Source: Minisyncoccota bacterium (GTDB lineage Bacteria; Patescibacteriota; Minisyncoccia; Phycocordibacterales; PALSA-1337). Taken from it: a DNA stretch of 64,000 nt. A program made the position numbers and the translations under genes. Under the pieces are notes generated by a model, which was given only the letters and a program-made list of their open reading frames with translations, was not told where the DNA came from and searched no databases. Where the stretch lies: assembly GCA_041666915.1 (NCBI GenBank), contig JBAYFZ010000003.1:22394-86393 (forward strand), in the 5' to 3' direction. How positions within the stretch are numbered: the stretch's first letter is position 1; the number at the start of each line of letters is the position of its first letter. This document shows, piece after piece, positions 14,133-62,200 of the stretch.

Positions 14133-14171
14133 AAAATTTTTATTTAATATGCTGATTATATTATCATGAAA

Positions 14172-14855
14172 TCATTTGAATCGTTGAATAAATAATACCC
14201 AAATACCGATGATACCATCGCGGTATTTTATCTTTTTACCATTCTCAATAGTTCTTGGATTATGAGATATTGGTACTTCTGCTATTTTGAAATTATTTTT
14301 GACCAAGCTAGTCGAGAATATTAGTTCGGATTCAAATCTACCCGAAACAAAGAGGTGACCAGCTTTCTTCGGAAAGAGTTTATAACAAGTCCAAAGGTCG
14401 GTCAATTTTGAACCGTAAAGTATATTGAATTGTTTTGTTATGAACCAGACTCCAACTCGTGGAATATACATACCTTTTCTTTTTTCATGGTGGATGTTTC
14501 TTGATCCATATATAATGTCGGCTTTACCTTTGTTGAGTTCGTTTATAAGTAGAGGAATTTCTTTTGGGTTATATTCTAGATCAGCGTCTTGTATCAAGAT
14601 ATAATCTCCAGAACTGTTTTCTATACCTGTTTTGACGGCGCTACCTTTTCCTTGGTTTTTTGTGTGGTAAATAATTTTCAAGCGATCCTTGTAGTCATCT
14701 AGAATCTTTCTAGTATCATCTTGCGATCCATCGTCAACTACCACGATTTCTTTTTTCCAGTTTGACGGTAATGATACCTGTAAAACTCTTTGTAGAAGTT
14801 CATGAATAGTAGCTTGCTCGTTGAAGCAAGGTATTATGATGGAAAGAGTTTTCAT
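14172..14855 (-). CDS. Glycosyltransferase family 2
   Basis: LSIIIPCFNEQATI, VVDDGSQDDT, QDADLEY. Confidence 0.75.
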   Translation of the reverse strand: MKTLSIIIPCFNEQATIHELLQRVLQVSLPSNWKKEIVVVDDGSQDDTRKILDDYKDRLKIIYHTKNQGKGSAVKTGIENSSGDYILIQDADLEYNPKEIPLLINELNKGKADIIYGSRNIHHEKRKGMYIPRVGVWFITKQFNILYGSKLTDLWTCYKLFPKKAGHLFVSGRFESELIFSTSLVKNNFKIAEVPISHNPRTIENGKKIKYRDGIIGIWVLFIQRFK

Positions 14856-14869
14856 CGTATAATTGAAGC

Positions 14870-15955: not shown

Positions 15956-15957
15956 AC

Positions 15958-36822: not shown

Positions 36823-36826
36823 TTTT

Positions 36827-37211
36827 GTGTCATTCCCGCGAAGGCGGGAATCCAGGATATTACCAAAACATAACGAATAATATGAATAAGGTATATTATG
36901 TTTATATATTAACAAATGATAAGAATGGTACTTTATATATAGGTGTTACTAATGATCTTAGAAGAAGATTGCATGAACACAAGAATAACCTAGTAAAAGG
37001 ATTTACAGAGAAATATAGTATTCACAAATTAGTTTGGTACGAGTGTACTAATAGTATTGATTCTGCAATACAAAGAGAGAAACAGCTTAAAAAGTGGAAT
37101 CGTAGATGGAAGATTAGATTGATTGAAGAAACTAATCCAATTTGGAAAGATTTATCCAGTAATGATCTATAGTGGTAATATCCTGGATTCCCGCCTTCGC
37201 GGGAATGACAC
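36827..37211. mobile_element. Small GIY-YIG element bounded by perfect 38-bp terminal inverted repeats
   Basis: Left: gtgtcattcccgcgaaggcgggaatccaggatattacc (36827-36864). Right: ggtaatatcctggattcccgccttcgcgggaatgacac (37174-37211). These are exact reverse complements, and each arm is itself a hairpin (ttcccgc/gcgggaa). The element is inserted between the murB stop and secA. Confidence 0.65.
36882..37172 (+). CDS. GIY-YIG nuclease family protein
   Basis: MNKVYYVYILTNDKNGTLYIGVTNDLRRRLHEHKNN...KKWNRRWK has the GIY-YIG core (YVYIL...YIGVT...R...E...N). The track ORF starting at 36810 reads through the left repeat; the internal ATG at 36882 is the more likely start. Confidence 0.75.
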   Translation: MNKVYYVYILTNDKNGTLYIGVTNDLRRRLHEHKNNLVKGFTEKYSIHKLVWYECTNSIDSAIQREKQLKKWNRRWKIRLIEETNPIWKDLSSNDL

Positions 37212-42046: not shown

Positions 42047-43036
42047 ATGGCTCTCATTGACGAAATACAATTTCATGCAAAAGCAGGCAACGGCGGTAAC
42101 GGCGTTGTTCGTTGGCGTCATGAGAAGAATAAAGAATTTGCTGGCGCAGGAGGTGGTAACGGTGGACCTGGTGGGGATGTCTACGTACGGACTGTTCGCG
42201 ATATAAATATCTTAGCTAGACATAAAACTACAAAATTATTCCAAGCTAGAAATGGTGACGATGGACAAAATTTTAATATGCAAGGTAAGGCTGGAGATGA
42301 TTGTTATATAGATTTACCGATCGGTTCAGTGATTGTAAATCTGCAGACTGGACGTACAATTGAGCTATTCAATGAAGGGGAAGAACAGAAGATTCTACAC
42401 GGTGGTCGTGGCGGTCTTGGTAATGAGTACTTCAAGGCTTCTACAAATATTAGACCTGAGCAATCAACTGACGGTGTCTATGGTGAAGAGGCTGACTTTA
42501 CGGTTGAATTGAACCTCATCGCTGACGCGGGGCTTATTGGTCTTCCTAATGCAGGTAAATCTAGTCTGCTGAACGCACTCACGGAGGCACGCGCGAAGGT
42601 TGGTAGTTATCAATTTACAACTCTGGATCCTAACCTAGGAGCTTTACCAGGAGGTTATATTCTCGCTGATTTGCCAGGACTTATAGAAGGTGCGGCTGAA
42701 GGTAAAGGTCTCGGTCATAAGTTCTTGAAGCATGTAAAGAGAACAAAAATGTTGCTCCATCTTGTTTCTTTGGAGAATGAAAATGTTATAGAAGTTTATC
42801 AAGGTATTAGAAAAGAATTGGAGAGATTTGGTGAGGGTTTGGATCAAAAAGAAGAAATAATAATTCTTACGAAGACGGATCTTGTAGGTCCAGAAAAGAT
42901 AGAAGAAGCGAGAAAGAGTCTTTCCGGAGGTGTAACCTCCGGAAATAAGACGCCGACTATTCTCACTGTTAGTATTTTAGATGATGGATCTATTAAAGAT
43001 TTGTCGGATAAATTGACTAAGAAGTTGGCGGAGTAG
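42047..43036 (+). CDS. obg: GTPase Obg/CgtA
   Basis: N-terminal glycine-rich Obg fold (GGNGGPGGDVYV). G1 GLPNAGKSSLLNAL, G3 DLPGLIEGA, G4 TKTD. Confidence 0.9.
   Translation: MALIDEIQFHAKAGNGGNGVVRWRHEKNKEFAGAGGGNGGPGGDVYVRTVRDINILARHKTTKLFQARNGDDGQNFNMQGKAGDDCYIDLPIGSVIVNLQTGRTIELFNEGEEQKILHGGRGGLGNEYFKASTNIRPEQSTDGVYGEEADFTVELNLIADAGLIGLPNAGKSSLLNALTEARAKVGSYQFTTLDPNLGALPGGYILADLPGLIEGAAEGKGLGHKFLKHVKRTKMLLHLVSLENENVIEVYQGIRKELERFGEGLDQKEEIIILTKTDLVGPEKIEEARKSLSGGVTSGNKTPTILTVSILDDGSIKDLSDKLTKKLAE
42922..42944. repeat. REP copy inside the obg coding sequence (encodes SGGVTSGN)
   Basis: ttccggaggtgtaacctccggaa, a perfect 10-bp-arm palindrome. Confidence 0.8.
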
Positions 43037-43628
43037 GGAAGTTTCTTCCGGAGGTGTAACCTCCGGAAAACAGTATTGGTGTTTGTTTACGAATCTCACC
43101 TAAATAATCTTTGAAGCTAGAGTACTCATAATTTTTAGAATAGGCCATTGCTTCCATGGCATGTTCCTTCTGAGCTTCTTTTGACATTTCTGGTTCCTTG
43201 ATCCCGTAAGGATTTAGATGGACATAATTGATTAGCTTATCAAGATAATCTTTTTCGTACACACCTTTTTCTTTGAACGATCCTTGCCAGATAGTTCCAG
43301 AATGATCGTATTTTTTGTTGTAATAACCAGAATAGCCAGTGCAGAATTTATGCATGAATTTAGTAATGTTTTCTGGAGGTGAAGCCTCCGGAAGTTTTAA
43401 GACGATATGGAAATGATTAGGCATTAAACAATAAGCGACAATATCAACAAGCGTACCTTTACGTTCAATTGAAAATATATCTTTTTCTCCGAAACCTTTG
43501 AGTTCAAAAGATTCGGTATTATTAGCTATATAGAGTAGTTTCAACATACGCCAATAGTCGCTGGCGTCATTAAAAATGACTGCTTTATGAGCTCCTCGGT
43601 TGTAGATATGATAGTAAATTTCTTTCAT
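43017..43628 (-). CDS. REP-associated tyrosine transposase (RAYT; IS200/IS605-like Y1 HuH transposase)
   Basis: HuH motif MPNHFHIVLKLPE. Catalytic Tyr region DYLDKLINYVHLNPYG and a downstream YSSF, as in E. coli RAYT (YIYINPVKHG...WPWSSF). It is flanked on both sides by REP palindromes. Confidence 0.75.
   Translation of the reverse strand: MKEIYYHIYNRGAHKAVIFNDASDYWRMLKLLYIANNTESFELKGFGEKDIFSIERKGTLVDIVAYCLMPNHFHIVLKLPEASPPENITKFMHKFCTGYSGYYNKKYDHSGTIWQGSFKEKGVYEKDYLDKLINYVHLNPYGIKEPEMSKEAQKEHAMEAMAYSKNYEYSSFKDYLGEIRKQTPILFSGGYTSGRNFPTPPTS
43046..43068. repeat. REP copy (terminator-like hairpin between convergent obg and RAYT)
   Basis: ttccggaggtgtaacctccggaa, 9 nt after the obg stop. Confidence 0.8.
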
Positions 43629-45768: not shown

Positions 45769-46224
45769 AAAATTAAAGGTTAATAAACATTGATAATAGT
45801 TATTAAATATATATAAATTGAATAAAATGTAATCTAAAATTATGCAAATTCTGTCTAAATCGTATTAATGTTTATAAAGGGTAAAATAAGATAGAAAATT
45901 TTAATAAAAATTCATGATCAACTTTTAGCTTTACGTTTATAAGTTTAACATATTTATTAAGGTGCAACTCTTAAAAATGTGCATAAAGCCCTATAAACGA
46001 TTTTAAAGCCAAGTTTTGAATTGAAATTATTGTCTACTTGTAAAACCATCATATTTATTTATATCACACCTTATAATATTAGCCGTATATTTATTGTGTG
46101 AGTACTATTTATATACTAAGTTTATCCCTTCCTGATTAAAACAGGTCTCTACACGATCTAGTCGCCCGACTCTTTTAAGTATTGATATATCTTTCCCTAT
46201 AAATGAAATTACAGCCTCTGAGAT

Positions 46225-46247
46225 TTACGGAGGTTACACCTCCGGAA
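46225..46247. repeat. REP copy in inverted orientation, within the AT-rich 45769-46350 control region
   Basis: ttacggaggttacacctccggaa (loop tta/cac, the reverse of gtgtaac). Confidence 0.7.
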
Positions 46248-46350
46248 AAATTACTACATACCTTTTTTTATTTCTGTTTTATAATTTGTTGTCCACAGTT
46301 TTCCTGAATATTTTCGTTAAAGATTACGATATAATGATTAGCGAACCAAT

Positions 46351-47526
46351 ATGAAAGATAGCTTTATTATTGAAGGTAAAAAATACATCTCGTCTAGACG
46401 AGCTTCCGAAATCTCGGACTATGCTTCTGATTACATCGGACAACTTTGTCGAGCAGGAAAGTTGGATTGCAAAATGGTCGGACGTGCATGGTTCATTACC
46501 GAAGAGTCTCTCAGTCTACACAAAACAAATGTTCTCCAAGATGAAGTTGTCAGAAACAGGATTGAAAATCTCCGTGGAAAGAAAAATAGGAACTTGGTTG
46601 TAAGCTCAGAAGCAATTAAGACTTCCGCTTCTACACAGACTCAGACTTCAACCAATGTTGTAACAGTTACAAACTCCTCAATAGTTGTTAGTTCAAATCC
46701 TGTAATATCAAATCAACAAGCTCCTGTTGTTTCGGGGTCTACTCCTGCACAATCCAAAGTTTCTGGTTCATCATTTGTTTACACTTCTGATGAAAGGCCA
46801 TTGTTACCAGTATTGAAGAAGCCTGTTACACCAGTTGCGAATGTTTCTAAGAATAAAAAAATACTTTCATTCTTATCAAAGAATGAAAGTAAATCAGCTG
46901 TTACAAAAAATAGATCAGCTAGTGAGATCGCTGGAAAAGTTACAAAGTCTCTCAAGAAGTTAACTACAGTAGGAAAACCTATCATCTCATATCCAGAACT
47001 TACTCGTTCAATAATTTTGAGACGTGCACTTGCTTCAGCTCTAGTAATCATGTTCTTTATCGGTATGGGTACGATGACTTTCAATATTTTCAATAGTGAA
47101 GAAGTCTCGGTCGCAACCAATGCTTCTAGTTCTCCTAGTGTTGCATCGGGATCGGCCAGAGCAAATGTTTACGATGTGATAATGGTTGCTACTTCTTTTG
47201 TTAAAAATGGATTTGGCAATATTGCATCTTTGTTTACAAAAACATCAAAACTCACTCTCAACGATACATCTCCGCCAGATGGTTTTGGTGGTAGTCAAGG
47301 ACTATCACCAAATGGTTTAGCAGTCACATCATCAAGTGGTTCGGATAGTGTAGATGAAGCGGTTAAACAAAAGATTAAGGGTTCGTTTTCAGATGAAGTT
47401 GAAGTTAGTCCAGATGAGAGTGGTACAGCAGGTGTGATCACTCCAGTGTTTAGAGAGTCAAAAGGAAAAGATTTTATTTATGTAATGGTTCCGGTAGATG
47501 GTAAGGGGGCAAGCGTGACACCGTAA
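46351..47526 (+). CDS. Membrane-tethered protein: N-terminal Xis/HTH_17-like DNA-binding domain, S/T-rich linker, single TM, extracytoplasmic C-terminal domain
   Basis: N-terminus: KKYISSRRASEISDYASDYIGQLCRAGKLDCKMVGRAWFITEESL, which is an HTH_17 pattern. TM: ILRRALASALVIMFFIGMGTMTF at about aa 215-237. No known domain after the TM. Confidence 0.45.
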   Translation: MKDSFIIEGKKYISSRRASEISDYASDYIGQLCRAGKLDCKMVGRAWFITEESLSLHKTNVLQDEVVRNRIENLRGKKNRNLVVSSEAIKTSASTQTQTSTNVVTVTNSSIVVSSNPVISNQQAPVVSGSTPAQSKVSGSSFVYTSDERPLLPVLKKPVTPVANVSKNKKILSFLSKNESKSAVTKNRSASEIAGKVTKSLKKLTTVGKPIISYPELTRSIILRRALASALVIMFFIGMGTMTFNIFNSEEVSVATNASSSPSVASGSARANVYDVIMVATSFVKNGFGNIASLFTKTSKLTLNDTSPPDGFGGSQGLSPNGLAVTSSSGSDSVDEAVKQKIKGSFSDEVEVSPDESGTAGVITPVFRESKGKDFIYVMVPVDGKGASVTP

Positions 47527-47579: not shown

Positions 47580-48257
47580 ATGAAAAAAAATATTATCAGT
47601 GCAATATTGGAAATAGGAATAGGATTCTTTGCAATCTTCTGGATATTCCTATTTTTAGAACCAGCGATATTACAGGGTGCCCAGAACACCTTCACTATCG
47701 CGCAAACAGTCTCCAAAGAGATTTCCTTCACGACACCAGGGTCCAATGTAACCCTTTCTCCTTCTTTGGGAGGTTTGACTGGGGGTACAGCAACAGGCGA
47801 AACGCAGATAGTGGTGACTACTAACAGTAGTCTTGGGTACATGATGACTATCATGGCTAGTTCATCGGTAGGTATGATCGGTAATGCTAGTTCATCCAAT
47901 TCTATTCCAGCTTATGTAACAGCTACAGCAGGTGTTCCAGATTTTAGTTTTACTGTTCCAGCCAATAAGGCATATTTTGGTTATTCAGTTGAAGCGTCTA
48001 CGACTGCTGACCTAGCAACTTCTTTCAAAGACGCTGCTAGTGCTTGTGATTCTGCTGGTGGAAGTGATACTGCTGACAAATGTTGGATAGCAGCAACTTC
48101 AACAGCGTATACGGTAGTCAATAGAACTTGGCAGACGCCAGCTTCTGGAGCAACAACTACTTTGAAATTTAGAGTTACTATCAATGCCAATCCAAGTCCA
48201 GTTATCCCAGATGATACTTATGTTGCTACAACGACACTTACAGCGACTGCAAATTAA
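47580..48257 (+). CDS. Secreted/anchored beta-rich protein of unknown function (paralog of 49363-50178; WxL-like candidate)
   Basis: N-terminal hydrophobic signal/anchor MKKNIISAILEIGIGFFAIFWIFLF. Shares blocks with the downstream paralog (VTLSPSLGGLTGGTATGETQIVVTTNSS... / ...TTTLKFRVTINAN...TYVATTTLTATAN). Confidence 0.45.
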   Translation: MKKNIISAILEIGIGFFAIFWIFLFLEPAILQGAQNTFTIAQTVSKEISFTTPGSNVTLSPSLGGLTGGTATGETQIVVTTNSSLGYMMTIMASSSVGMIGNASSSNSIPAYVTATAGVPDFSFTVPANKAYFGYSVEASTTADLATSFKDAASACDSAGGSDTADKCWIAATSTAYTVVNRTWQTPASGATTTLKFRVTINANPSPVIPDDTYVATTTLTATAN

Positions 48258-48261
48258 AAAT

Positions 48262-49311
48262 ATGAAAAAAATCACGATTATAAACAAATTGAATACTGTC
48301 AATCTGAATAAGGTGCTAGCGATCCTTGCAATATTTGTAGTCGTAGTCGGTGTCTCCAATATGGTGTTGGCAAAAGTAGAAACATCCACCACGACAAGTC
48401 CTGTTACAGAAAAAGCAGTAGTCTCTTTTGAAACTTTGCCAGAAAATACAGTATTCAATGATTTTGTTGTTGGTCCAGGAAAAGTCCAGATAGATATTGC
48501 TCCTGGAGAATCAAAAACTTTTGAACTTACTATTGCGAACAGATTAGGTACAGAGAAAACTTTTTCAATCGTAGAAGAAGATTTCGTCGGCTCAAATGAT
48601 CCAGACAAAACTGTTGTCTTGTTGGGTAATGACCGTGGCCCATATTCGCTCAAGGATTATTTGAAGATAGGTACAAGTTCAATAGACATTCCTCATGCTG
48701 TAAAGTCTCGCGTCTTGATAACTGTATCTGTTCCTAAGAATGCTCAGCCAGGTGGTCTATATGGAAGTGTTGTCATCGGTACCGTGAGTAAGGCTGGTGA
48801 CAATTCTAGTTCAACCGGAGTCAATACAACTAATCCAATAATCACTCGTATAGGTACTTTGGTTTTTGTGAGAGTTGCTGGTGCAGTCAAAGAAAGTGGT
48901 GAGCTTACAGGTTTTATATTAGCTGGCAATCACAAGTTTATTTCTGGAGGAGAGCCTGTAGTCTTTGATCTTTTGTACAAGAATTCAGGAAATATTCACC
49001 TCAATCCAAGTGGAACAATAACTATAAACAATCTGCTTGGTTCAAATGTTGGAAATATAAAAGTTGAACCATGGTTTGCTATGCCAAATTCACTTCGCTT
49101 TCGTGAGGTTGAATGGAAAGCACCTTTTCTCTTTGGAAGATACACAGCTCATGCGGTCATAGAGAGAGGTTACGGTGACCTCAAAGATGAGATGAGTGTC
49201 ACATTCTGGATCGTGCCGTGGAAGATGATGTTGATGGTGATAGCGGGTCTGGTGGTTTTTATAGGATTAGTGAGATGGATATTCAAGAAGTTCAAGATAA
49301 CGAGAAAGTAG
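48262..49311 (+). CDS. Cell-surface protein with N-terminal signal peptide, two beta-sandwich-like regions and a C-terminal TM anchor plus basic tail (DUF916/DUF3324-like architecture)
   Basis: Signal AILAIFVVVVGVSNMVLA. APGESKTFELTIANR looks like a CARDB/DUF916-like strand. C-terminal WKMMLMVIAGLVVFIGLVRWIFKKFKITRK. The track ORF at 48184 overlaps the upstream gene; the ATG at 48262 follows its stop. Confidence 0.4.
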   Translation: MKKITIINKLNTVNLNKVLAILAIFVVVVGVSNMVLAKVETSTTTSPVTEKAVVSFETLPENTVFNDFVVGPGKVQIDIAPGESKTFELTIANRLGTEKTFSIVEEDFVGSNDPDKTVVLLGNDRGPYSLKDYLKIGTSSIDIPHAVKSRVLITVSVPKNAQPGGLYGSVVIGTVSKAGDNSSSTGVNTTNPIITRIGTLVFVRVAGAVKESGELTGFILAGNHKFISGGEPVVFDLLYKNSGNIHLNPSGTITINNLLGSNVGNIKVEPWFAMPNSLRFREVEWKAPFLFGRYTAHAVIERGYGDLKDEMSVTFWIVPWKMMLMVIAGLVVFIGLVRWIFKKFKITRK

Positions 49312-49362
49312 AAGGAAGAGGTAAGAGTTAAGAGGTAGGAGGTAAGAGTTAAGAAAGAAGCA

Positions 49363-50178
49363 ATGAACAAAAATTTCATTAAAAACTTAAGGAAAAATTC
49401 TTGTGATGTCGGATATCACAGCAAGTTTACCGTCTTAATCGTTACTGCCTTTTTTGTAGTTTCAATCTTTGGTCTATTGAATGTTGTCAACGCAGAGGTT
49501 ATGTCTAGCACAAATTACAAACTTGAAAATGACAGTATCAATTTTGGTGGAGGACGTGCCACTTCTACTTCTTATGTCATTGAAGATACTGCCGGAGAAA
49601 TTGCAACAGGTATGTCGTCTAGTACCAATTACATTATGAAAGCTGGTTATCAACAGACTCAAGATATCTACACAGTTTCAGTCACGCAATCTTCAAATGT
49701 AACAATGTCTCCTTCATTCGGAGGTGTTACCGGAGGTACAGCCAATGGACAGACATCCTTTACTGTAACTACCGACAATCCTGCTGGTTATTCAGCGACG
49801 ATCGCAGCAACTATGTCTCCAGCACTTAGGACATCGGCAGATAGTTTTACGGATTATGTTCCAGCTGGTGCGGTCCCTGATTTTACTTTTACGAACGCTT
49901 CAACAAATTCTTCTTTTGCCTTTACTCCAGAGAGTACTGATTTGGATGTTGATTATGAAGATTCTGGTGGAGTTTGTGGGGTTGCAGGAAGTGATACTGC
50001 AGATGCTTGTTGGAATGGTTTATCAACGACAGGAAAGACGATACTAAATAGAACTTCATCAAACAATCCATCTGGTACAGCGTCAACGATAAAGTTTAGA
50101 GCGGAATCAGGGAGTAATCATATACAAGTAGACGGAGTTTATATGGCAACGACAACGATTACGGTAGTGGCATTGTGA
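49363..50178 (+). CDS. Secreted beta-rich protein, paralog of 47580-48257
   Basis: Signal peptide TVLIVTAFFVVSIFGLLNVVNA. VTMSPSFGGVTGGTANGQTSFTVTTDNPAGYSATIAATMS. C-terminal ...TIKFRAESGSNHIQVDGVYMATTTITVVAL. Confidence 0.45.
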   Translation: MNKNFIKNLRKNSCDVGYHSKFTVLIVTAFFVVSIFGLLNVVNAEVMSSTNYKLENDSINFGGGRATSTSYVIEDTAGEIATGMSSSTNYIMKAGYQQTQDIYTVSVTQSSNVTMSPSFGGVTGGTANGQTSFTVTTDNPAGYSATIAATMSPALRTSADSFTDYVPAGAVPDFTFTNASTNSSFAFTPESTDLDVDYEDSGGVCGVAGSDTADACWNGLSTTGKTILNRTSSNNPSGTASTIKFRAESGSNHIQVDGVYMATTTITVVAL

Positions 50179-50234
50179 GGGTAAGGGATTAGAGGATAGA
50201 GAATTAGGGATTAGAAAAAGGGGGCAAAGAAGCA

Positions 50235-53200
50235 ATGAATAAAAATTTTATTAAAAACTTAGGAAAAAATATCATCAAGGTTGCACCTCGATGTTTTGTT
50301 ATCTTTACTTTAATTATTTCTTTCATTGTTTCTCCTTTGTCAGTTTTTGCCGTTCAGTCTACATTTACAACTTCTCTAACTACTACTGGAGTTGCTACAA
50401 CACCACCGGCAATACCTTCCAATCTTTTGGCTACCGCAGTCTCTGATACACAGATTGATCTTTCTTGGACAGCTTCGGTTCCGACATTCTACACAGTTAC
50501 TGGTTATAGGATTTTCCGTGATTCTGTATTTTTGGCCACAACTAGTTCAGTGGTTTATTCCGATACAGGTTTGACTCCAGAGACAGCTTATTCATATACA
50601 GTAGAAGCTTTTGATTCAATTATTCAATTGTCTGGACAGTCTGCCACTTCTACAGCTACAACTACAGCAACACCAGTTGTTCCTCCTGTAACTCCTCCAG
50701 TAACACCACCTTCTTCTGGTGGAGGAAGTTCGGGATCTTCAGTGATCAATATCACTGATATTAAGGTCGTCGCTGGAACAAATAATGCAAATATTTCATT
50801 TAAGACCAATGTATCAGCTCAGACGAAAGTCCAGTGGGGATTCTCAAATGATTTTGAAATCGGTTCCCTTCAAAATATTTTTTATGGAAAAGAACATTCT
50901 CAAATGATAAATGGTCTTGTTGAAGGTTTAACATATTTTGTCAGGATTACAGCTACCAATAGTCAAGGTATATCTACATATAGAGATATTTCTTTCAAGA
51001 CTGATCTTGCTGTAGTAGAACTTGGTCCTTTGCCAAACCCATCAAATTTCTTGGCACAAGCTACAGACAAAAATATCAATCTTACTTGGGACAATCCTAT
51101 AGATGAGAGATTCAATAATGTCAGAATAGTTCGTACAGAAGGATTTTTCCCAATAGATCAATTTGACGGTACTCCTATATATGAGGGTGATGGTCAATCT
51201 TTTGTAGATAAGAGTGCAAAAATCGGTACTACGTATTACTATGCTATTTTTGCAAAGGGTATAGATGGAGAATATTCTTCAGGTGCTTTGGCTCAAGCTC
51301 GCATCGCTCCAGCTGGAGAGATAGTAGTCTCGCCAACTTCAACAGATCCATTTATAAATATTCCAGAGTCAACAAATGTGGATCCGATGATCAAAAAGAT
51401 TACTTTGTCTGATTTTGAATTTATTCAAGAAGGGAAAAATCTTTCAGTTATCGGTAGTACGGTTGCTATAAAAGGTGGCGAAAATCTAACTATTCGTCTT
51501 GCATACAACAAAGTTCCTGAAATTTTGAAGACAGTTGCTTTCACCTTGCAAGATCCATCAGATAAAACAAAAGTCTTCCCATTTTTGTTACGTATCAATG
51601 CTGACAAGACTTACTATGAAGCGACTATTGGTGCTTTGGGTAAATCTGGTCGTTATGGAATGTCAGTAGTTATTTTGGATTATGAAAATAAAGGTTTGAA
51701 ACGTTTGAATGGAACTCTTGCTGCGCTTGCTTTCAATGCAATGCCTTTTGATTTCGGTAATAATTTTGATTTCTTGGGCATATTGTTGTTGCTCTTGGTA
51801 ATCATCCTTGTTATTTTGGCTATCGCATTGCTTCGTAAGTGGATCAATTATTCTCCAGAACATCAGACTGTAGACAAACCAAAAACTTCTGGAGTTACTA
51901 TTTCCAGAGATGTTTTCAATGCTATTTCAAAGATTTCAATATTTGTCTTGGTTGTTACGGCTTCATTCGGAATTCAACAAGCATTTGCTACTACTTTCAA
52001 TCCAGAGATAAATTATCAAGGTAAATTGACCGATAGTGTTGGTTCAAATGTTGCCAATGGTTCATATAGTATTCGTTTCAAACTTTATACGACCTTGTCT
52101 GGAGGTTCACCTATTTGGACTGAGACATGGTGTAACACTTCAACTTGTGATGGTTTGGGTACAGGTGCGGATAGTAGAATAACTTTGACTAGTGGATTAT
52201 TTAGCACCATGCTTGGAAGTACGACTGCTTTAGATGGCATTGATTTCAATCAGCCTCTATATCTCGGTGTTGAGATCGGAGGTTCTGGAGCAACGGCTTC
52301 ATGGGATGGGGAAATGTCACCTCGTAAGATTCTCGGAGCTGTCCCTTCCGCATTTTATTCCGCAACTTCTACGGTGGCTCTTTCTGCAAATTCTGCTGAC
52401 ACCTTATCTGGATTGAATTCTTCACAATTCCTTCGCTCTGATATACAAAATGCTACTTCATCATCTTCAACTTTCTTCAGTGTCTTACAATCTGGTGCTG
52501 GTAAGATTGCAGAATTTTTTGGGAGCGCAGCACAAAGTGTCTTTTCAATTTTATCAAATGGTAATGTCGGAGTCGGAACAACTACTCCATCATCTAGGTT
52601 TAATGTTTATGGTGACGTATCTTTCCAAACTCCATCAAATTCAGCCACAGCTTTTCAGATACTAAACTCGGCCACCAGTTCGGTTTTCTCTGTAGCTACT
52701 ACAGGCTTTGGTACTACTACTTTAGCTGGTCTAACTATTTCTGGTTCAGCTACTTCTACCTCTAACGTAGGTTGGAATATCTCCACGGGATGTTTTGCAG
52801 TCAACGGTGTCTGTTTGAGTGGTGCAGATGGTACGGCCAGTTCCACTCTATTATCTGATACCAACACATGGACAGGTTTGAATGTCTTTGGTTATGCAAG
52901 TACCACTCAGATCAGTTCAACAGGAAATGCTTATCTTGCTACGACTGGTGGGAATGTTGGTATCGGCACCACTTCGCCATTCGCAAAATTTGCAATCAAT
53001 CCAATTGCTGGTGATGGGGCGTCATTCGTCATTGGTTCTTCTACTAGAACAGATTTTATAGTTACAAATGAAGGAATGATTGGGGTTGGAAGCACGAGCC
53101 CTTCTGCAATTTTCAGTATCTTAGGACGAAACGGCAAGACACAAGGTACGGCGGAAACTAGGATTGCACCAACAGCTCTCTATGTTCAAGGAGGAACCGG

Positions 53201-56200
53201 TGGTGGAGGATCTTCGATCCCTGGGGGTAAAGGAGCGGATATTATCCTTATCGCTGGTAATGGAGCAAGTTCTGCTTTAGGAGATGGTAACGGAGGTAGT
53301 TTAACATTTACGGCCGGTAATGGTGGTGCTACTGATGGGAGTGGTGTTGGTGGAAATGTAACAATAAATCCAGGTCTAACTGGAGGTGGAGGTAATGGTA
53401 AAATTGTCTTAGCTGATTTGCGAGGTAATGTTGGAGTTGGTACCACTTCACCATTCAGTAAACTTTCAGTTTCTACTCCTGCTCAACAAAGCGGATCATT
53501 ACCACTCTTTACAGTTGCTTCTACAACGAGTGCCTCGCTACTTACGGTTCTTGGGAATGGCAATGTGGGGATTGGTACGGCGGTGCCTACAAGTGTTTTA
53601 GATGTTAATGGAAATATAAATGCTACAACCATGATAGCCGGTACTCATCTACTTGTTCAGAATACAGGAATATATTATGACTCGGTTTCCAATGGAGCGT
53701 ATTCTTTTGCAAATTCTGGTGTTGATCTTGCTCTCAAAACAGCCTCTGTCGGCACAGTTATGACGATTAAAGATGCCGGCCTCGTAGGCATCGGCACCTC
53801 TACCCCATATTCCAAACTCTCCGTCTGGGGTTCTTCAACAGGAACAAACAGAATGTTTGAATTAACCAACAGTGCTTCAACAACACTAATGAGTATGTTG
53901 GAAAATGGTACAGGTTATTTCTTGGGTAATATCGGAATTGGCACCACCACTCCAGGTACTATTCTTTCTCTTGGAAATACCGGTGATAGCACCATCAATC
54001 TTTCAGTTACAGCCACTTCAACCTTTGGTACAGGAATAAATCTACGAACAGGTTGCTTCGCTGTAAACGGAACTTGTGTCGGTGGTGCAGATGGTACTTC
54101 AAGTTCTACTCTATTATCAGACACTAACACTTGGACAGGTTTGAATGTCTTTGGGTACGCAAGTACCACGCAGATATCTTCAACAGGTTCCGCCTATTTC
54201 GCAACAACTGGTGGGAATGTTGGAGTTGGTACAACTTCACCTTTCAGTAAACTTTCAGTTTCTACTTCTGCACAACAGAGTGGAACATTACCACTCTTTA
54301 CAGTTGCTTCTACAACGAGTGCTTCATTATTTACAGTTTTGGGAAATGGGAATGTGGGGATTGGGACTTCTACTGTTTCAGAAAAACTTTTTGTGGAAGG
54401 CAACATTGCTCCTTCAATGACTAACCTATATACCGCTGGTAGCTACACTCTAAATTCCGCTGTTGCTTCCGTAGCTAATATTACAGCTTCAGGAATCGCT
54501 AATTCAGATCTACTTGGTGTTAGTTCCGCTTCTGCTGGAGATGTGAATGGTGATGGTATTAACGATGTTATTATCGGTGCAACTGCTGCTGATGGTGCAG
54601 GTACCGATCGTGGTCAAGCTTACATCTTCTTTGGTTCAACCACTCCTAGGACAACATTTGCTCCTGCTTCTGCCGACGTTATCCTTTCTGGTTCAGAAGA
54701 TTCTGGTAGTTTTGGTACTAGTGTCGCCTCTGCTGGAGATGTAAACGGTGATGGATATGGCGATGTGATAGTCGGAGCTACTAATGTTGCTGGCGGAGGT
54801 TCATATCGTGGTCAAACATATATCTTTTATGGAGGCCCAAATTTCACAGGTGCAATAATTGCTTCTTCTGCAAATGTAATTATTTCCGGAGCGGCTGATT
54901 ATGATAGTAATGGTCAAGTTGTAGCTTCTGCAGGAGATGTAAACGGTGATGGATATGGCGATGTGATCATGACTGCATTGTCTGCTGATGATGGAGGTTT
55001 TGATCGTGGTCAAGCCTATATCTTTTATGGTAAGCCAAACCTTGCAAGTACATATACTACAGCAAATGCTGATGTTATTATTTCAGGAAATACCGATGGT
55101 GTTCAGATGGGTAATAGCGTAGCTTCTGTTGGAGATGTGAACGGTGATGGATATGGCGATGTGATCATTGGTGCACAATCTGCAGATGTTGGAGGTAATA
55201 ATCGCGGTCAAGCCTATATCTTTTATGGTAAGCCAAACCTTGCAAGTGCTTATTCAGCTTCTTCTGCGAATGTTATTGTCACTGGAATGGTAGATATGGG
55301 CTTTATGGGTATCAGTTCTGCTTCTGCTGGAGATGTGAACGGTGATGGATATTCTGACTTTATCATTGGGGCAAGTAGTGCAGCTGGTGGAGGTACTTCT
55401 CGCGGTCAAGCCTATGTCTTCTACGGTAAATCAAATTTAGCAAGTACATATTCTGCATCTTCCGCTAATGTAACTATTTCCGGAATCGCCAATAGTGATG
55501 CTCTTGGTTACAGTGTTGCCTCCGCTGGAGATGTGAATGGTGACGGATATGGAGATATTATAGTTGGAGCAGTTGGTGCCGCTGGTGGAGGTACATCTCG
55601 CGGTCAAGCATATATTTTCTACGGTAAGTCTGATCTTTCAAGTACTTATACAGCTTCATCTGCAGACGTTGCTTTTTCAGGAATTGCCACTAGTGATGCT
55701 TTTGGTTCCAGTGTTACTTCTGCTGGAGATATAAATAATGATGGGTACTCTGATGTTATGGTTGGAGCATATGGTGCCGCTGGCGGAGGTACATCTCGCG
55801 GTCAAACATATATCTTTACCCCAACCGGCAATCGTTTCAAATCTATTTATGCACAAAGTGGTAGCTTTACAAAGGGAATACAACTAGGTGGTGGAATGTC
55901 AACGTTGAATGCTTACGGTCTTTCAAGCCTAAGTCAATTTTCATTAAACACGGCAGATTGGTCAATCAGTAAATCAGGAACTTCTTCCATGCAGAGTTTG
56001 ATAGTTTCTGGAAATGTTGGTATCGGTACAACTTCGCCATTCTCAACTCTTTCTGTTTCTACTCCTGTACAGCAGAGTGGATTGTTATCGCTCTTCACGG
56101 TTGCTTCTACTACGGGCGCTTCTCTATTTTCTGTCTTAGGCAATGGAAATATCGGCATCGGCACGACCACTCCGGGCACACTTTTATCTCTTGGAAACAC

Positions 56201-59200
56201 CGGCAACAGTACCATTAATATTTCGGCTACTGCCACTTCAACCTTTGGTACGGGAATAGATTTAAGAACAGGTTGTTTCGCCATTAACGGCGTCTGTTTG
56301 AGCGGTGCAGACGGTACAGCAAGTTCTACACTTTTGTCTGATACTAATACTTGGACAGGTTTGAATGTCTTTGGTTACGCAAGTACCACGCAGATCAGTT
56401 CAACAGGAAATGCTTACTTTGCAACGACTGGAGGAAAGGTAGGAGTTGGAACAACTTCGCCATTCTCAACCCTTTCTGTTTCTACTCCTGCACAACAGAG
56501 CGGGTCATTACCACTTCTTACAGTAGCTTCTACGACTGGTGCGACGCTATTAACTGTTTTGGGAAATGGGAATGTGGGGATTGGAACAATGAATCCAGCG
56601 TATCCATTAGATGTTAATGGAAGTGTGAACGCAGCCTCTTATAGAACAAGTAATGTGATTTCTCTTATATTAGCAAATTCTGCTATAAATATAGGAGATA
56701 CTTATGGAAGTACTTATCCTCTTGTAGTTAATGCTGGTGGTTCAGAAAGGATGAGAGTCTCGACTGGTGGCAACGTCGGCATCGGCACCACCTCTCCATA
56801 TTCCAAACTCTCCGTCTGGGGTGCTTCAACAGGAACAAACAGAATGTTTGAATTAACCAACAGTGCTTCAACAACACTCATGAGTATGTTGGAAAATGGC
56901 ACAGGCTATTTCTTGGGTAATATTGGAATTGGAACAACTTCACCATACGCGAAACTTTCAGTGGTTGGTCCGGTAGTGGCTGAATATTTCTATGCAACCT
57001 CCACAACAGCAACTTCAACATTTGCTGGTGGGCTTGATGTAGGAAATGGTGGACTTGTTTATGAGGCTTCTACAGGTATCACTTCAGCTTCTTCATTCCA
57101 AATGGGTAACTTAAGTTTTGATCTCAATGCAGGTGCTGTATCTTGGATAGATCTTCCAATAGATAGTAGTGCCCCAGCAAATACACCACAGAGTTACACT
57201 GCCAACTTGAACGGTTTGCCAATGCTCACTATCGGAGGTCTTTCTGATGGTGCTGGGAATATTATAAATGCTGGTATCGGAATCGGTACAACTACCTCAT
57301 ATTCCAAACTCTCCGTCTGGGGTTCTTCAACAGGAACAAACAGAATGTTTGAATTAACCAACAGTGCTTCAACAACACTCATGAGTATGTTGGAAAATGG
57401 CACAGGATATTTCTTGGGTAATATTGGAATTGGAACAACCACCCCAGGTACACTCCTTTCTCTTGGAAATACCGGCAACAGTACCATTAATATTTCAGCT
57501 ACTGCCACTTCAACATTTGGTACAGGAATAAATCTAAGAACAGGTTGCTTCGCCGTCAACGGAATTTGTGTCGGTGGTGCAGATGGTACAGCAAGTTCTA
57601 CTCTACTATCAGACACCAACACATGGACAGGTTTGAATGTCTTTGGGTATGCCTCTTCAACACAATTCACAACAACGGCTGATACATATCTTGCGACATT
57701 GGGAGGCAATGTTGGCATTGGTACGACAAGTCCTGTCAGTAAGTTTTCAGTTGATGGGACTTCTAGCTTTAGTGGCTACACTATCATTGGTGGAACATCA
57801 CTTATAGATAATTCAGTTCCTCTTAATGTCATAGCTGATGGTTATTTTGGTACAGCAGGTAAGATAGCAAACTTTATTTCCAATCAAGATTATGGACATG
57901 TGGGTATATTCAAAGATGATAATTCTCGCGGATTGTTCCTCGGTTACGGTACTGGTAATTTGCTAGCAGGTAATGATAATGATGCTTTTATACAGATTGG
58001 AGCCGCATCAAGTAGTCGTGGTTACCTCCATTTGGTTGATGGTGTAGGTGCTGGTTCTGATGGTCAATTCGGTCTAATGAGTCCTTATGTTCTCATTGGA
58101 GCTTCTACTGCAAATGGAAGTGGCTCAGTCTTACAAGTTGAAGGCTTGTCTACTCTTGTTGGTAATGTTGGTGTTGGAACGACTTCACCTTTGGCAAGAT
58201 TGGATGTTGCCGGAGTCTTGGGTTCTCAAGCAGATTTATTCAATGTTTCTTCAACGACAGCAACAGATATAGTCTCAAGTCTATTTAAAGTTTCTGCAAA
58301 TGGTAATGTTACTATCGGTTATTTGAATGGTTCTCTCCAAGCTGTCAACGGAGTAGTTTCTGCAACTTCAACACTTTCAATTGCTTATGGAGGTACAGGT
58401 ACATCTACATCTCCAACATATGGAAAATTACTTATGGGTGATGGTACTGGAAAATATGACTTAGTTGCAACTTCAACATTGGGAATTTTGGGTGCTAGTG
58501 CTATTGCATTGGGTACACCTGGTCAGATACCTTATTACTCTGCAAATTTGCAAGCAGTTTCTGCAACTTCTTCTATATTTATAAATCAGACAAATAGTTT
58601 TATTGGTATCGGTACAACTACTCCTACCTCAGCTTTGTCAGTCTTCAACGCTTCCGCTCCTCAATTCCAGCTCGCATATAACACGAGTAATTACATGAAT
58701 GTCGGGGTTTCTTCTACTGGTGGAGTTACAATGGCAGTCAATGGTTCTCTCGGAGGCTTTGCTATCACAAATCCTCAACCGACCGTTGTTGGTAGTGGTA
58801 CAGGTACAAATGCTCCTCTAGGTTTCTCTGTAGCCGGTGGTATCGGAGGAAATTCAAATGATACAAATATTGGTGTTGGTGGTATCGGTGGCGGTTTGCA
58901 ACTTACAGCTGGTGTTGGAGGTTCCGCAGGACTTTCTACTTTCTCAGAGACAGGTGGTGCTGGAGGTGCAGTATCTATGCTTGCTGGTGCTGGAGGTGCA
59001 ACGGCTTCTCCTAGTATTGATTTTATGTCTAGAGTTGCAGGTAACGGAGGTCTCATGACTTTGGCTGGTGGTGCTGGAGGTAATGCTTCAAATGGTGGTC
59101 TAGCAAGTTCTAATACTGCTGGTAATGGTGGAGCTTTCACTTTGAAAGGTGGTGCTGGAGGTAATGCTAGTGGTGCTACAACCAATAATGGTGGTGCTGG

Positions 59201-62200
59201 AGGGAGTCTATATATATCAGGTGGTGCTGGAGGTACAGGTTCTACTGCAAATGGTACTGCTGGTAATCTTTATCTCGGTTATGATTCTTCAAGCGCTCTT
59301 GGTAATGTTTATTTCGGCAATCAGGGTGCCTCGTACATTACAAGTACAGGGAATTTTGGAGTTGGTACCACTTCTCCTTTCAGTAAACTTTCAGTTTCTA
59401 CTTCTGCTCAACAGGATGGATCAACGCCACTCTTTACAGTAGCTTCTACTACAAGTGCTTCGTTATTTACAGTTTTGGGAAATGGGAATGTTGGGATTGG
59501 GACAAATAATCCAACAAAGCTTTTTATTGTCGCGTCTGGAGCAAACACAGTTATGAGTATGAATTCTTCGGGTCTATTGAATATAGCAACTTATCTTCAA
59601 CTTAATGGTGGAACCGCTGTTTCTTATAGTGGTACACAGTTACAGTTGGGTACTGGTTTTACTACGCAATATTTACCAGGCAACGTCGGCATCGGCACCA
59701 CCACTCCATTAGCCAAACTTAACATCTACGGCGACGTGGTTTTCCAGACTCCAACCAATTCAGCCACGGCTTTCCAGATACTGAACGCGGCTACCAGCTC
59801 GGTCTTCTCTGTAGCTACCACCGGCTTTGGCACTACTACTTTGGCTGGTCTAAATATCTCCGGTTCAGCTACTTCTACTTCTAACGTAGGTTGGAATATT
59901 ACATCCGGTTGTTTTGCCATTAACGGCGTCTGCGTAGGAGGTGGTGCAGGCGCAGGTGATGGTACAGCAAGTTCTACTCTTTTGTCTGATAATAATACTT
60001 GGACAGGTTCTAATATATTCAATAGTAATGTTGGAATTGGTACCACCTCACCATTCTCAACTCTTTCTGTTTCTACTTCTGCACAACAAAATGGAGCATC
60101 ACCACTCTTTACAGTAGCTTCTACGACTGGTGCGACGTTATTAACTGTTTTGGGAAATGGGTATGTTGGAATTGGTAAATCTAATCCAACGGTTGCTTTG
60201 GATGTGACAGGGGGAATATCTGCTAGTGGAAATATTGCTGCTGGTGGAGCCTTATATGCGGGTGGTGTTTACGGCTTGATATGGAATGGTCGTAGTAGTA
60301 TTTATTCAACTGCTGATGGTCAATTTTCTTTCTATAATAACGCTGGAACATCTTTTTCAAGAATTAATCTTGGAGGAACCACTTCAGCTTTTCCTGCAAT
60401 TGGGGCTTCTGGATCTAATCTTATAGTCCAGTCTGCTGATGGAACACTTGGCACTAATTTAGGAGTAGGCACCTCCTCCCCATACTCCAAACTCTCCGTC
60501 TGGGGTTCTTCAACAGGAACAAACAGAATGTTTGAGCTAACCAACAGTGCCTCAACAACACTTATGAGTATGTTGGAAAATGGTACAGGCTATTTCTTGG
60601 GTAATGTTGGAATTGGTACAACTTCTCCTTATGCAAAACTTTCAGTAGTTGGTCCAGTAGTGGCTGAATACTTCCATGCAACTTCTACAACAGCAACCTC
60701 AACATTTGCTGGTGGTTTTGATGTAGGTAGTGGTGGACTTACTTACGAACAGGGTTCAGGTATTACTTATATCAGTTCTCTACAGACTTCTAATTTCAAT
60801 TTTGAAACAAATGCAGGTATGGTCTCATGGGTAGATCTTCCTACAGATTCCAATGCTCCAAGCGGTACAGTCCAGAGTTATTCAGCAGGTCTAAACGGAA
60901 GTTCAACACTTACTATATATGGTATATCAGATGGTGCTGGTAATCTTCAATCTGATTGGCCGAGAGTATCTATCGGAGGTACATCTGCAGGTACGACTAC
61001 ACCTAGTTCAAAATTGACAGTTTTTGGTAATGGTACTGGAACAGGAGGAATATTTGAGCTTGTAGATAGTGCCTCAACAACACTTATGAAAGTTTTGAAT
61101 AATGGAAGTGTCGGTATCGGCACAACCTCTCCAGGTACTCTTCTTTCTCTCGGAAACACTGGAAACAATACAATCAACATCTCAGCTACTGCCACTTCAA
61201 CCTTTGGCACAGGAATAAACCTAAGAACAGGATGTTTTGCTGTTAATGATGTTTGTATAGGTGGCGGTGGTGGTGCAGGCGACGGCACATCAAGTTCTAC
61301 TCTACTATCTGATTACAACACATGGACAGGTTTGAATGTCTTCGGATATGCAAGTACCACACAGATCAGTTCAACTGGAAATGCTTACTTTGCTACAACA
61401 GGTGGAAAGGTAGGAGTTGGAACAACTTCACCATTCTCAACTCTTTCAGTTTCTACTTCTGCACAACAAGATGGAGCATTACCACTCTTTACAGTGGCTT
61501 CTACTACTGGAGCTTCGTTACTTACAGTTTTGGGAAATGGGTATGTTGGTATCGGAACAGCAAGCCCAACAAATGTTCTTGATGTCAGTGGAACATTCAA
61601 ATCTAGTGGCCAATCAATAGTCGCTGACGCCTTCCGTTTCTATACAGGCAACAGTGATGCTGGTACCTCATACAGTGATTTTAGAACAAATCCTGCAACC
61701 GGTAATGCAATACTTAGCGCAAAGTCTGGAGCTGTCTATTTCAACTACGATCACGGCAATCAAGGAGTCATCTTTTCAAACGGATCTCAAGCTACGGTAG
61801 CTACTATAAATAGTACTGGACACGCAGTGTTCTATGGTACGGGTGATAACTCATTTGCAGGAGAATTGGGCGTTGGTACAACCACTCCATATTCCAGACT
61901 TTCAGTTTGGGGGGCTTCAACAGGAACAAATAGGATGTTTGAATTAACAAACAGTGCTTCAACAACACTCATGAGTGTATTGGAAAATGGTACAGGTTAT
62001 TTCTCAGGAAATATTGGAATAGGAACAACCACCCCAGGTTCTATCCTTTCTTTGGGTGATACTGGCAGTAACACCATCAACATCTCAGCCACAGCCACTT
62101 CAACATTTGGCACAGGTATAAACCTAAGAACAGGATGTTTTGCTGTTAATGATGTTTGTATAGGTGGCGGTGGTGGTGCAGGCGACGGCACATCAAGTTC

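Follow-up and report, generated by a model that had tools for sequence, protein, structure and literature searches.

In a 64,000-nucleotide stretch of contig JBAYFZ010000003.1 (Minisyncoccota bacterium, assembly GCA_041666915.1, positions 22,394 to 86,393; hereafter the window), one gene encodes a giant surface protein of 4,642 amino acids (aa) in which a transmembrane (TM) segment, a short polar loop and a second, signal-peptide-like hydrophobic segment form a hairpin. Comparison of sequences from related loci demonstrates that the hairpin marks the place where two neighbouring genes were joined in frame by a natural fusion, since inherited: one for a membrane-anchored array of beta-sandwich domains (the anchor module) and one for a tail-fibre-like protein (the fibre). 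Taken as a whole, it is likely that this fusion seam belongs to a polyprotein processed in the Sec pathway and equivalent to the two-gene state of other species. This is real biology, yet a variant of known membrane-protein logic; the novelty lies in the setting (a 4,642-aa surface protein of the Candidate Phyla Radiation, CPR), in the frequency (about 40% of related loci and the whole clade of the window), in the repeated gain and loss, and in the recurrence at several operon junctions.

The gene starts at nucleotide (nt) 50235, the first ATG of its open reading frame (ORF), with a purine-rich, ribosome-binding-like sequence (AAAAAGGGGG) just 5′. Translation over nt 50208–64000 gives no stop codon; the 13.9-kb ORF is intact and continues past the window end, 4,588 aa being encoded inside and the last 54 codons lying outside. 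The public annotation of this exact sequence calls a single gene product, 4,642 aa long (MFA6554524.1), which is entered under Candidatus Paceibacterota as ‘hypothetical protein WCS89_03370’. The taxonomy used here follows this record, since the title ‘Saccharibacteria’ of some related TPA MAGs is probably wrong. A hydropathy scan (Kyte–Doolittle, 19-aa window, mean >1.8) finds just three strong hydrophobic segments in the 4,588 in-window residues, namely the N-terminal signal peptide, the first TM segment (TM1) and the second segment of the hairpin. A preliminary description of the window had noted the hairpin, with no stop or frameshift between its parts and a fibre of more than 4,000 aa behind it, and these claims hold: the exact sequences lie in one uninterrupted, stop-free frame and at least 4,003 aa of fibre follow within the window. 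Two details change, however: the polar stretch given as 32 aa counts 33 aa (aa 534–566), and the region ahead of the hairpin, described as two FN3 domains and an immunoglobulin (Ig)-like region, comprises four beta-sandwich domains according to the AlphaFold2 (AF2) model and Foldseek. In the model of aa 1–760, the four beta-sandwich domains are confident and are followed by a helix at 513–537, a disordered loop and a helix at 558–577 (confidence is given as the predicted local distance difference test, pLDDT). The best Foldseek matches of the anchor module are tandem FNIII arrays, while Pfam recognizes one FN3 domain and seven FG-GAP repeats in the giant protein. The parts of the gene, all on the plus strand, are the following.

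50235..64000, plus strand: fused anchor–fibre gene; stop-free frame, identical to P0241 / MFA6554524.1 over 4,588 aa.
50235..50351, plus strand: N-terminal signal peptide of the anchor module, aa 1–39, ..SVFA↓VQ; hydrophobic segment, Ala39 in 77% of homologs.
50352..50396, plus strand: conserved N-terminal extension with alternating pattern, a candidate donor strand; column conservation, pLDDT <50 at aa 35–51.
50397..51734, plus strand: four FN3/Ig-like beta-sandwich domains, aa ~61–142, 173–255, 270–356 and 394–498; Pfam fn3 at 61–129, AF2 pLDDT >90, Foldseek.
51771..51833, plus strand: TM1, FLGILLLLLVIILVILAIALL, aa 513–533, predicted stop-transfer anchor; mean hydropathy 3.6, AF2 helix 513–537.
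51834..51932, plus strand: loop, RKWINYSPEHQTVDKPKTSGVTISRDVFNAISK, aa 534–566, 33 aa, predicted cytoplasmic; starts RKW, 6 K/R versus 3 D/E.
51933..51989, plus strand: predicted internal signal peptide (hydrophobic h-region and cleavage-site c-region), ISIFVLVVTASFGIQQAFA, aa 567–585; aligns with N-terminal signal peptides of stand-alone fibres.
51990..52514, plus strand: conserved N-terminal domain of the mature fibre, beginning TTFNPEINYQGKL; family matches to cluster representatives.
52515..64000, plus strand: repetitive tail-fibre-like shaft to the window end; Pfam FG-GAP E 1.3e-45, PHROG 9942 tail fiber protein E 4e-10.

The predicted signal peptidase I site, AFA↓TT, falls between nt 51989 and 51990. 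Within the shaft, the seven FG-GAP repeats (Pfam) occupy aa ~1430–1870 (nt ~54522–55844), and the fibre C-terminus, taken from P0241, consists of a coiled-coil-like region, a small globular domain and a Pro/Thr/Ala-rich tail, with neither a TM segment nor an LPXTG motif. Composition does not break at the junction and the window holds no tRNA, so nothing there suggests the insertion of a mobile element.

A homology search with aa 1–760 returned 699 proteins, and the best 120 of these are overwhelmingly 500–600 aa long, covering only the first 60–70% of the query, that is the anchor module. Among 98 aligned homologs, 91 stop 5–65 aa after TM1 with a basic tail, and in the other seven the chain goes on, with another hydrophobic segment and then either the fibre domain or a LamG protein. 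The window protein shares the family motifs (VRIVRS..FFP, YYYAIFA, KVPEILKT, FLLRVN and LDYxNQGLK), its identity to the best hits is 52–58%, and TM1 stands at the family position, corresponding to the C-terminal TM segment of stand-alone homologs; only the family trait of ending 5–65 aa after this segment fails, as the ORF goes on for more than 4,000 aa, which is also seen in 33 of 84 loci. These loci come from a survey in which one genome per GTDB species was scanned with an alignment of 12 sequences covering the conserved Ig-like part (80 loci added) and the fused or split state was assigned by tblastn-anchored classification. Of the 84 non-redundant related loci in Patescibacteria, 51 are split and 33 fused; all close relatives of the window are among the fused ones. 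A TM–loop–signal-peptide junction that recurs in so many loci far exceeds what chance would give. In the split loci, the first gene encodes ~520–590 aa with a signal peptide, an FN3/Ig array, a TM segment and a short basic tail, and its product ends 45–125 aa past the conserved Ig-like domain, not far behind TM1. Of the 49 split loci with enough downstream sequence, 46 have a fibre gene downstream, and in 40 of them it is the immediate next gene, its start being −23 to +103 nt from the anchor stop; the most frequent overlaps are 4, 8, 11 or 14 nt. The product of this second gene starts as Met–signal peptide–AxA↓x-F/I-N-x-Q/E-INYQGKL. Anchor and fibre genes in split loci are, as their layout predicts, tightly and normally translationally coupled, and, because they abut or overlap by a few nt, a 1–2-nt indel in unconstrained sequence suffices to fuse or split them. 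The fused and split states are interleaved on a quick, rough neighbour-joining tree of a 205-aa region of the conserved domain, on which parsimony counts at least 10 changes. The preliminary description had offered a fusion of two formerly separate genes as one of its explanations and had asked whether orthologs form one gene or two: both states exist, and the 51 two-gene loci, with the fibre next and carrying its own signal peptide and the same mature N-terminus, bear that explanation out. It had also held that a stop codon in orthologs would mean two genes and an assembly error. A stop codon at the junction position does occur in many orthologs (the split loci), but the nearest relatives are all fused and three assemblies agree.

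The family of the fibre N-terminal domain has 8,273 cluster representatives at E≤1e-3, and in the best 150 of these the domain starts at aa ~8–80 in most, right behind an N-terminal signal peptide, and at aa 428–594 in 13; it was found only behind a signal-peptide-like segment. The best-hit contigs (L001–L003) are syntenic with the window, the order being GatB and a MerR-like gene (opposite strand), four small genes, the FN3–TM gene, a LamG gene and the giant fibre gene; here anchor, LamG and fibre genes are separate, and the latter two products have their own signal peptides (LamG, AHA↓AVSDSGLVGYW; fibre, AEA↓AVFNPQINYQGKL). The LamG/Laminin_G_3 protein, of ~700 aa, is encoded between anchor and fibre at 11809–13935 in L001 and at 11740–13776 in L003, which belong to a sister clade of the window group; at the corresponding place the window lacks a LamG gene. 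The LamG protein, rather than the fibre, is the fusion partner of the anchor in P0037, with the same type of seam. In several public loci, contig ends fall inside the repetitive fibre.

Some related contigs carry interrupted fibre genes. In L007 (ENA ERZ25039472, contig_44134, 11782–16224), the fibre of a fused ortholog is split into several ORFs by frameshifts, which look like long-read assembly error rather than biology. In P0047 (L005 ~11690–11730, L006 ~4500–4540), the anchor–fibre gene is likewise fused and a perfect 20-nt tandem duplication (AGCTGATGGACAGTATCCAA twice), located 28 aa past the predicted cleavage site, shifts the frame, so that the first ORF stops and the remaining 2,402-aa fibre lies in another frame. 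The duplication is the same in two assemblies; it could mark a pseudogene or an on/off switch operating by duplication slippage.

The second hydrophobic segment has the features of a Sec-type signal peptide in all respects but position. Over 33 distinct fused junctions, the loop measures 4–77 aa (median 16), is net positive in 32, and has 2–5 Lys/Arg among the first six residues after TM1. In the window, the n-region contributes K566 (and R558) ahead of the hydrophobic core, the h-region is ISIFVLVVTASFG and the c-region is IQQAFA, for a combined h- and c-region length of 19 aa. This length has a median of 23 in fused junctions (n = 43) and of 24 in stand-alone fibres (n = 145; Mann–Whitney p 0.44). 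Alanine occupies position −1 in 93% of the fused junctions (40/43) and 85% of the stand-alone fibres, and position −3 in 72% (31/43) and 54%, respectively; the predicted site lies five residues before INYQGKL in 72% and 75%. The −3/−1 cleavage motif, assigned by one rule in both sets, is kept in 43/43 fused junctions, statistically indistinguishable from the 145 stand-alone fibres. Only the N-terminal location expected of a Sec signal peptide fails, the segment sitting 566 aa into the ORF, while its counterpart is N-terminal in the 51 split orthologs. A lipoprotein signal or a type IV pilin-type signal was rejected by inspection (no Cys at +1, no G↓F-x-x-x-E motif).

Within the clade of the window, all close relatives (L008, L009, L011–L014, L088, P0242, P0244 and P0246) are fused; over the conserved domain, identity is 73–79% where measured. 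Both TM1 and the N-terminus of the mature fibre have been conserved. In the loop, homology is recognizable only at the start (RKW-x-x-Y-S/H-P-E), the remainder having diverged with indels, and hardly any of the hydrophobic core of the second segment is shared; the −3/−1 positions nevertheless read A/V-x-A/S in 11/11. In the window, the ATT at nt 51900 (Ile556) aligns with the ATG of a Met in L008 (MNRPNNLPVGK followed by the h-region) and is preceded by GGAG 5 nt upstream; this ATT is probably a relic of the fibre start codon. These comparisons show that the gene arose by fusion, that the fusion is inherited and has recurred, and that the cleavage motif is conserved.

The same seam is found at another junction of these loci. 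The Pam pilus of the CPR has membrane-anchored PapD-like chaperones (PamC/D) and a tip pilin (PamT), as described in a preprint (bioRxiv 10.64898/2026.03.03.709456), and the window encodes a PapD-fold chaperone-like protein and a PamT-like pilin, detailed below. Among 120 homologs of the chaperone, eight (P0141, P0142, P0153, P0160, P0161, P0169, P0199 and P0201) continue from the chaperone and its TM segment through a 5–8-aa basic loop into a signal peptide ending in AxA and then a PamT-like pilin, the junction in P0161 reading ...IVKKLFKKKSVIVTILFGIISLTSLQQANA↓QEVMTSTNYKLESD. This fusion is seen on two assemblies (L088 8001–9740, L089 6195–7934), and the L088 genome carries both the chaperone–pilin and the anchor–fibre fusions. 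Since the pilin must leave the chaperone to be assembled, this argues that such internal signal peptides are cleaved.

In a further type of domain fusion in the operon, one clade (P0041, P0094 and P0104; L023–L043 group of loci) has anchors without the two N-terminal FN3 domains, whose place at the start is taken by the region of the PamT-like pilin that bears the motif SSxNYxLxSDSxNFGG...AGYQQ.

According to general rules of Sec-dependent insertion, a long hydrophobic helix stops transfer, positive residues stay inside, and a following signal sequence inserts with its N-terminus in and its C-terminus out. One of the two joined genes, A, codes for a type-I membrane protein whose signal peptide precedes a conserved candidate strand, four FN3/Ig domains, a TM segment and a short basic, predicted cytoplasmic tail; the other, B, codes for the giant tail-fibre-like protein and supplies a Sec signal peptide of its own. 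The lineage of the window has lost both the stop codon that ended A and the start codon that opened B, so that the tail of A and the n-region of the signal peptide of B became the 33-aa loop and the signal peptide itself became the internal hydrophobic segment. During export, the N-terminal signal peptide would take the FN3 array across the membrane, TM1 would halt the transfer, the basic loop would be retained in the cytoplasm, and the former signal peptide would re-insert N-in/C-out and restart translocation for the >4,000-aa fibre. Both large parts outside with a cytoplasmic loop, the unusual topology that the preliminary description had considered, is by these rules the expected topology of the precursor, in keeping with the net positive loop of 32 of the 33 junctions; the three explanations offered there do not exclude one another. 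Cleavage after AFA585 is expected, since signal peptidase I works on the outer side of the membrane and requires no more than the geometry of the c-region; this would free the fibre N-terminus TTFNPEINYQGK. The fibre would then have the mature N-terminus x-F-N-x-E-INYQGKL, the same as in two-gene species, and the anchor would be held by a two-helix hairpin. Such processing, also among the explanations of the preliminary description, is the probable fate of the internal signal peptide, its likelihood being raised because the motif persists while loops and cores diverge, and because the same seam joins chaperone to pilin. The fusion also acts as a ‘Rosetta stone’ that would point to a physical partnership of anchor and fibre.

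Other accounts of the seam differ in what they make of the junction itself. An assembly or sequencing artefact, or a freshly inactivated pseudogene, would have an indel error joining two genes; many orthologs being two genes a few nt apart, a single such error could mimic a fusion, and frameshifts exist in some related contigs (L007, and the 20-nt duplication of L005/L006). This is scarcely conceivable here. The MEGAHIT contig k141_1372067 of ENA ERZ27249449 (112 kb) and a Logan contig of SRR6484324 show zero mismatches to the window, junction included, with zero-mismatch matches of 15.3 kb and 8.9 kb in the two further assemblies; three separately produced assemblies are therefore equal base for base over the junction, and what they contain is a gene fusion, not an assembly error. 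In addition, close relatives from unrelated studies are all fused with homologous yet diverged loops, no relic stop or start remains in the loop, and the 13.9-kb ORF is unbroken. A different account accepts the frame and makes it largely irrelevant, the fibre coming mostly from independent initiation inside the loop. The ATT at 51900 with its GGAG and the aligned Met of L008 fit such a start, as does a Met at the expected signal-peptide start in fused L008, L027, L030, L031, P0244 and P0037. ATT is, however, a very weak initiator, the window loop contains no ATG, GTG or TTG, and most of the clade (L009, L011–L014, L088, P0242 and P0246) has no Met there, so that no start codon is conserved across the clade at this position; an internal start was rejected as the main route on this ground and is very unlikely.

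The alternative with more to say for itself shares the fusion origin and differs in the fate of the signal peptide, which would stay uncleaved and leave one chain of ~480 kDa with a mid-chain helical-hairpin anchor and both large parts outside, the fibre being covalently tethered to the membrane beside the FN3 stalk. Several observations agree with it: the fibre has no other anchor (no C-terminal TM segment or LPXTG, and a Pro-rich tail), the h- and c-regions are fairly long (19 aa here, median 23 over the junctions) and approach signal-anchor length, and recurrent fusion could be selected for tethering the fibre. It is nonetheless unlikely, since the −3/−1 motif and the fixed distance to the mature N-terminus are found in 43/43 fused junctions at frequencies at least those of stand-alone fibres, the motif persists in the clade of the window while neighbouring residues have diverged, an identical seam joins the chaperone to a pilin needing release, and stand-alone fibres would also have to be uncleaved and signal-anchored despite a near-universal AxA. 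Against the processed polyprotein, several points have nevertheless to be counted. Cleavage and topology would follow from insertion rules and conservation; the cleavage-site rule favours small residues and partly builds in the −3/−1 result, although the same rule served for both sets; and young fusions could keep the motif briefly through inheritance alone. The second helix and the fibre N-terminal domain have low AF2 confidence (pLDDT 40–55) with a shallow alignment. Once cleaved, the fibre sequence would offer no device for retention on the cell (no C-terminal TM segment or LPXTG), a problem that an uncleaved hairpin would solve. The kinship of the anchor module with PamR, the anchor/terminator of Pam pili, is a further weak spot. 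According to the preprint (bioRxiv 10.64898/2026.03.03.709456), PamR (WP_260763282.1 in M. amalyticus) combines two FnIII domains with a TM helix at the C-terminus and, at the N-terminus, an additional strand that can be inserted into a pilin. The anchor module is PamR-like only in architecture and may work in a similar way; in NCBIfam it has no match to a Pam anchor model, its sole match being to the FN3 region of CbhB, and Foldseek on aa 1–760 gives only generic tandem-FNIII arrays, which cannot discriminate likeness to RbmA or PamR.

Precedents for the processed polyprotein come from other membrane systems. Envelope-glycoprotein polyproteins of viruses, for example bunyavirus Gn/Gc and the structural region of flavi- and pestiviruses, have behind a TM anchor an internal signal peptide at which the signal peptidase of the host cuts. 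As in the window, these polyproteins run from an ectodomain through a TM anchor, a short cytoplasmic loop and an internal signal peptide with a small-x-small site to the next ectodomain, and, as proposed here, a single translation product gives two exported proteins that work together. The combination of a TM anchor with an internal cleavable signal peptide is indeed textbook in viral glycoprotein polyproteins (e.g. PMC7926653). Unlike these, the window case lies on a bacterial chromosome, has arisen by repeated fusion of adjacent genes and coexists with separate genes in sister lineages; the processing enzyme would be signal peptidase I of the cell itself, and cleavage is predicted from sequence. 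A bacterial parallel is the cytochrome b–c1 precursor FbcH of Bradyrhizobium japonicum, reportedly split at an internal signal peptide (Thony-Meyer et al., about 1991). FbcH is also a bacterial membrane protein followed by an exported protein that keeps its signal peptide, and it is said to be processed into two functional partners; it belongs, however, to a respiratory complex, its first part being polytopic and its second part small, whereas the window has a >4,000-aa surface fibre and a fusion that is polymorphic among relatives. Searches of the literature on bacterial internal signal peptides returned viral and eukaryotic cases only and none for bacterial surface fibres or pilus operons, and those on giant patescibacterial surface proteins returned nothing relevant. 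As to the shaft, its GNVGIGTTSP-type repeats resemble phage tail fibres (PHROG 9942, E 4e-10); unlike these, the window gene is chromosomal, Sec-exported, endowed with FG-GAP repeats and placed in a pilus-type operon, the window having no phage context.

The genes upstream of the anchor–fibre gene, all co-directional with it, are the following; counts of homologs refer to the 73 related loci having >4.5 kb of upstream sequence.

46351..47526, plus strand: 391-aa protein, first gene of the cluster, with one internal hydrophobic segment; co-directional upstream homolog in 72/73 loci.
47580..48257, plus strand: 225-aa secreted pilin-like protein with an N-terminal signal peptide; homolog in 48/73 loci.
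48220..49311, plus strand: chaperone-like protein, membrane-anchored through a C-terminal TM segment, with the PapD/WxLIP fold of two Ig domains; profile, AF2 and Foldseek.
49363..50178, plus strand: 271-aa PamT-like pilin; NCBIfam NF058579 CPR_pilus_PamT, homolog in 73/73 loci.

The order of these four genes is kept in most related loci (73/73, 72/73, 48/73 and 47/73). The 391-aa protein has no Pfam or NCBIfam match and the 225-aa protein no NCBIfam match; the latter shares with the 271-aa protein the motifs SPSLGGLTGG.. and SDTADxCW and a C-terminal YxATTTxT. The chaperone-like protein measures 350 aa from the ATG at 48259 (363 aa in the public call). Its AF2 model (pLDDT 86) shows the two-domain fold of chaperone–usher chaperones with a C-terminal helix at 321–344, and thereby the PapD/FimC-type chaperone with a C-terminal TM helix that characterizes Pam operons; Foldseek retrieves the WxL-interacting protein (WxLIP) at E 4e-13, then the chaperone–usher chaperones CfaA, CsuC, DraB, Caf1M, FimC and PapD, and the family profile matches EfmWxLIP1 of E. 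faecium (PDB 9i25/9i1y) with E 8.5e-9. WxLIP consists of DUF916/DUF3324 plus a TM segment (PMC10599100). With the WxL clusters of Firmicutes (PMC10599100; PDB 9i25, 9i1y), the window thus has in common a homolog of WxLIP in sequence and fold, C-terminal TM segment included, and a set of small and large surface proteins; in contrast to them, no WxL domains were detected and the partners are Pam-like pilins and the fibre. Profile and model suggest that Firmicute WxL clusters and Pam-type pili of the CPR may share an assembly component. The match of the 271-aa pilin to NF058579 (E 1.5e-11, aa 24–150 only) scores 44 bits against an equivalog cut-off of 240 bits, which indicates a putative homologous domain shared with PamT, not an equivalog; other Pam models have no NCBIfam match at E≤10.

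With the Pam operon the cluster shares secreted pilin-like proteins, a TM-bearing PapD-fold chaperone, an FNIII–TM protein with a conserved, candidate N-terminal strand and an adjacent tail-fibre-like giant, such a tail-fibre-like protein co-localizing consistently with the Pam operon (bioRxiv 10.64898/2026.03.03.709456). It differs in the anchor, with four beta-sandwich domains versus two in PamR, and in lineage, the preprint reporting mainly Saccharimonadia and Microgenomatia while the window is of Paceibacteria type; in the sections examined, the preprint makes no mention of anchor–fibre or chaperone–pilin fusions. In the N-terminal extension, F44 (92%) and D54 (87%) are conserved, together with L48, T49 and V50, and the region, disordered in the monomer model, is, by analogy with PamR, a candidate donor strand (aa 40–54). 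A bolder proposal, which we hold to be doubtful, is that Pam-like operons routinely encode Sec polyproteins cut by signal peptidase I (anchor–fibre, anchor–LamG and chaperone–pilin), and that the tail-fibre-like protein would be a pilus component whose invariant, freed N-terminal strand (x-F-N-x-E-I-N-Y-Q-G-K-L, with alternating hydrophobics and Gly) docks by strand complementation on the PamR-like anchor or a pilin. If true, this would account both for the need to keep cleavage and for the coupling or fusion of the anchor and fibre genes.

These results settle the build of a 4,642-aa ‘hypothetical protein’ from an uncultivated CPR bacterium, and they tell annotators that giant genes in such genomes can be natural fusions with internal export signals, not mis-assemblies. 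Polyproteins combining a TM anchor with an internal signal peptide are rarely described in bacteria, and the alternation of fused and split states among sister species at two or three junctions of a single operon is a natural experiment on the topology of membrane proteins and on the specificity of signal peptidase. The fusion ties the unexplained ‘tail-fibre-like protein’ beside Pam operons to a membrane-anchored FNIII protein, and it gives a testable hypothesis on how episymbiotic Patescibacteria mount very long surface fibres.

Some minor observations concern the surroundings. The 271-aa pilin gene and the giant gene have near-identical starts (window 49354–49398 versus 50226–50270), AAGAAGCA ATG AAY AAA AAT TTY ATT AAA AAC TTA, encoding MNKNFIKNL(R/G)KN, with similarity dropping beyond; local duplication, gene conversion or a shared regulatory/initiation element could account for this. 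An unusually long (582 nt), very AT-rich intergenic region at 45769–46350, which separates the first gene of the cluster from the divergently oriented MerR-like gene, is probably the operon control region. Further upstream, an IS200-like Y1 transposase (43017–43628, minus strand) lies between obg and gatB, which are adjacent and transposase-free in L001 and L088, while L007 has a Y1 transposase elsewhere in the locus. A GIY-YIG endonuclease ORF (36810–37172) stands directly upstream of secA (37277–39988), and the DEAD domain match of SecA spans aa 13–469 for a 290-position profile, which points to a large insertion in the motor domain.

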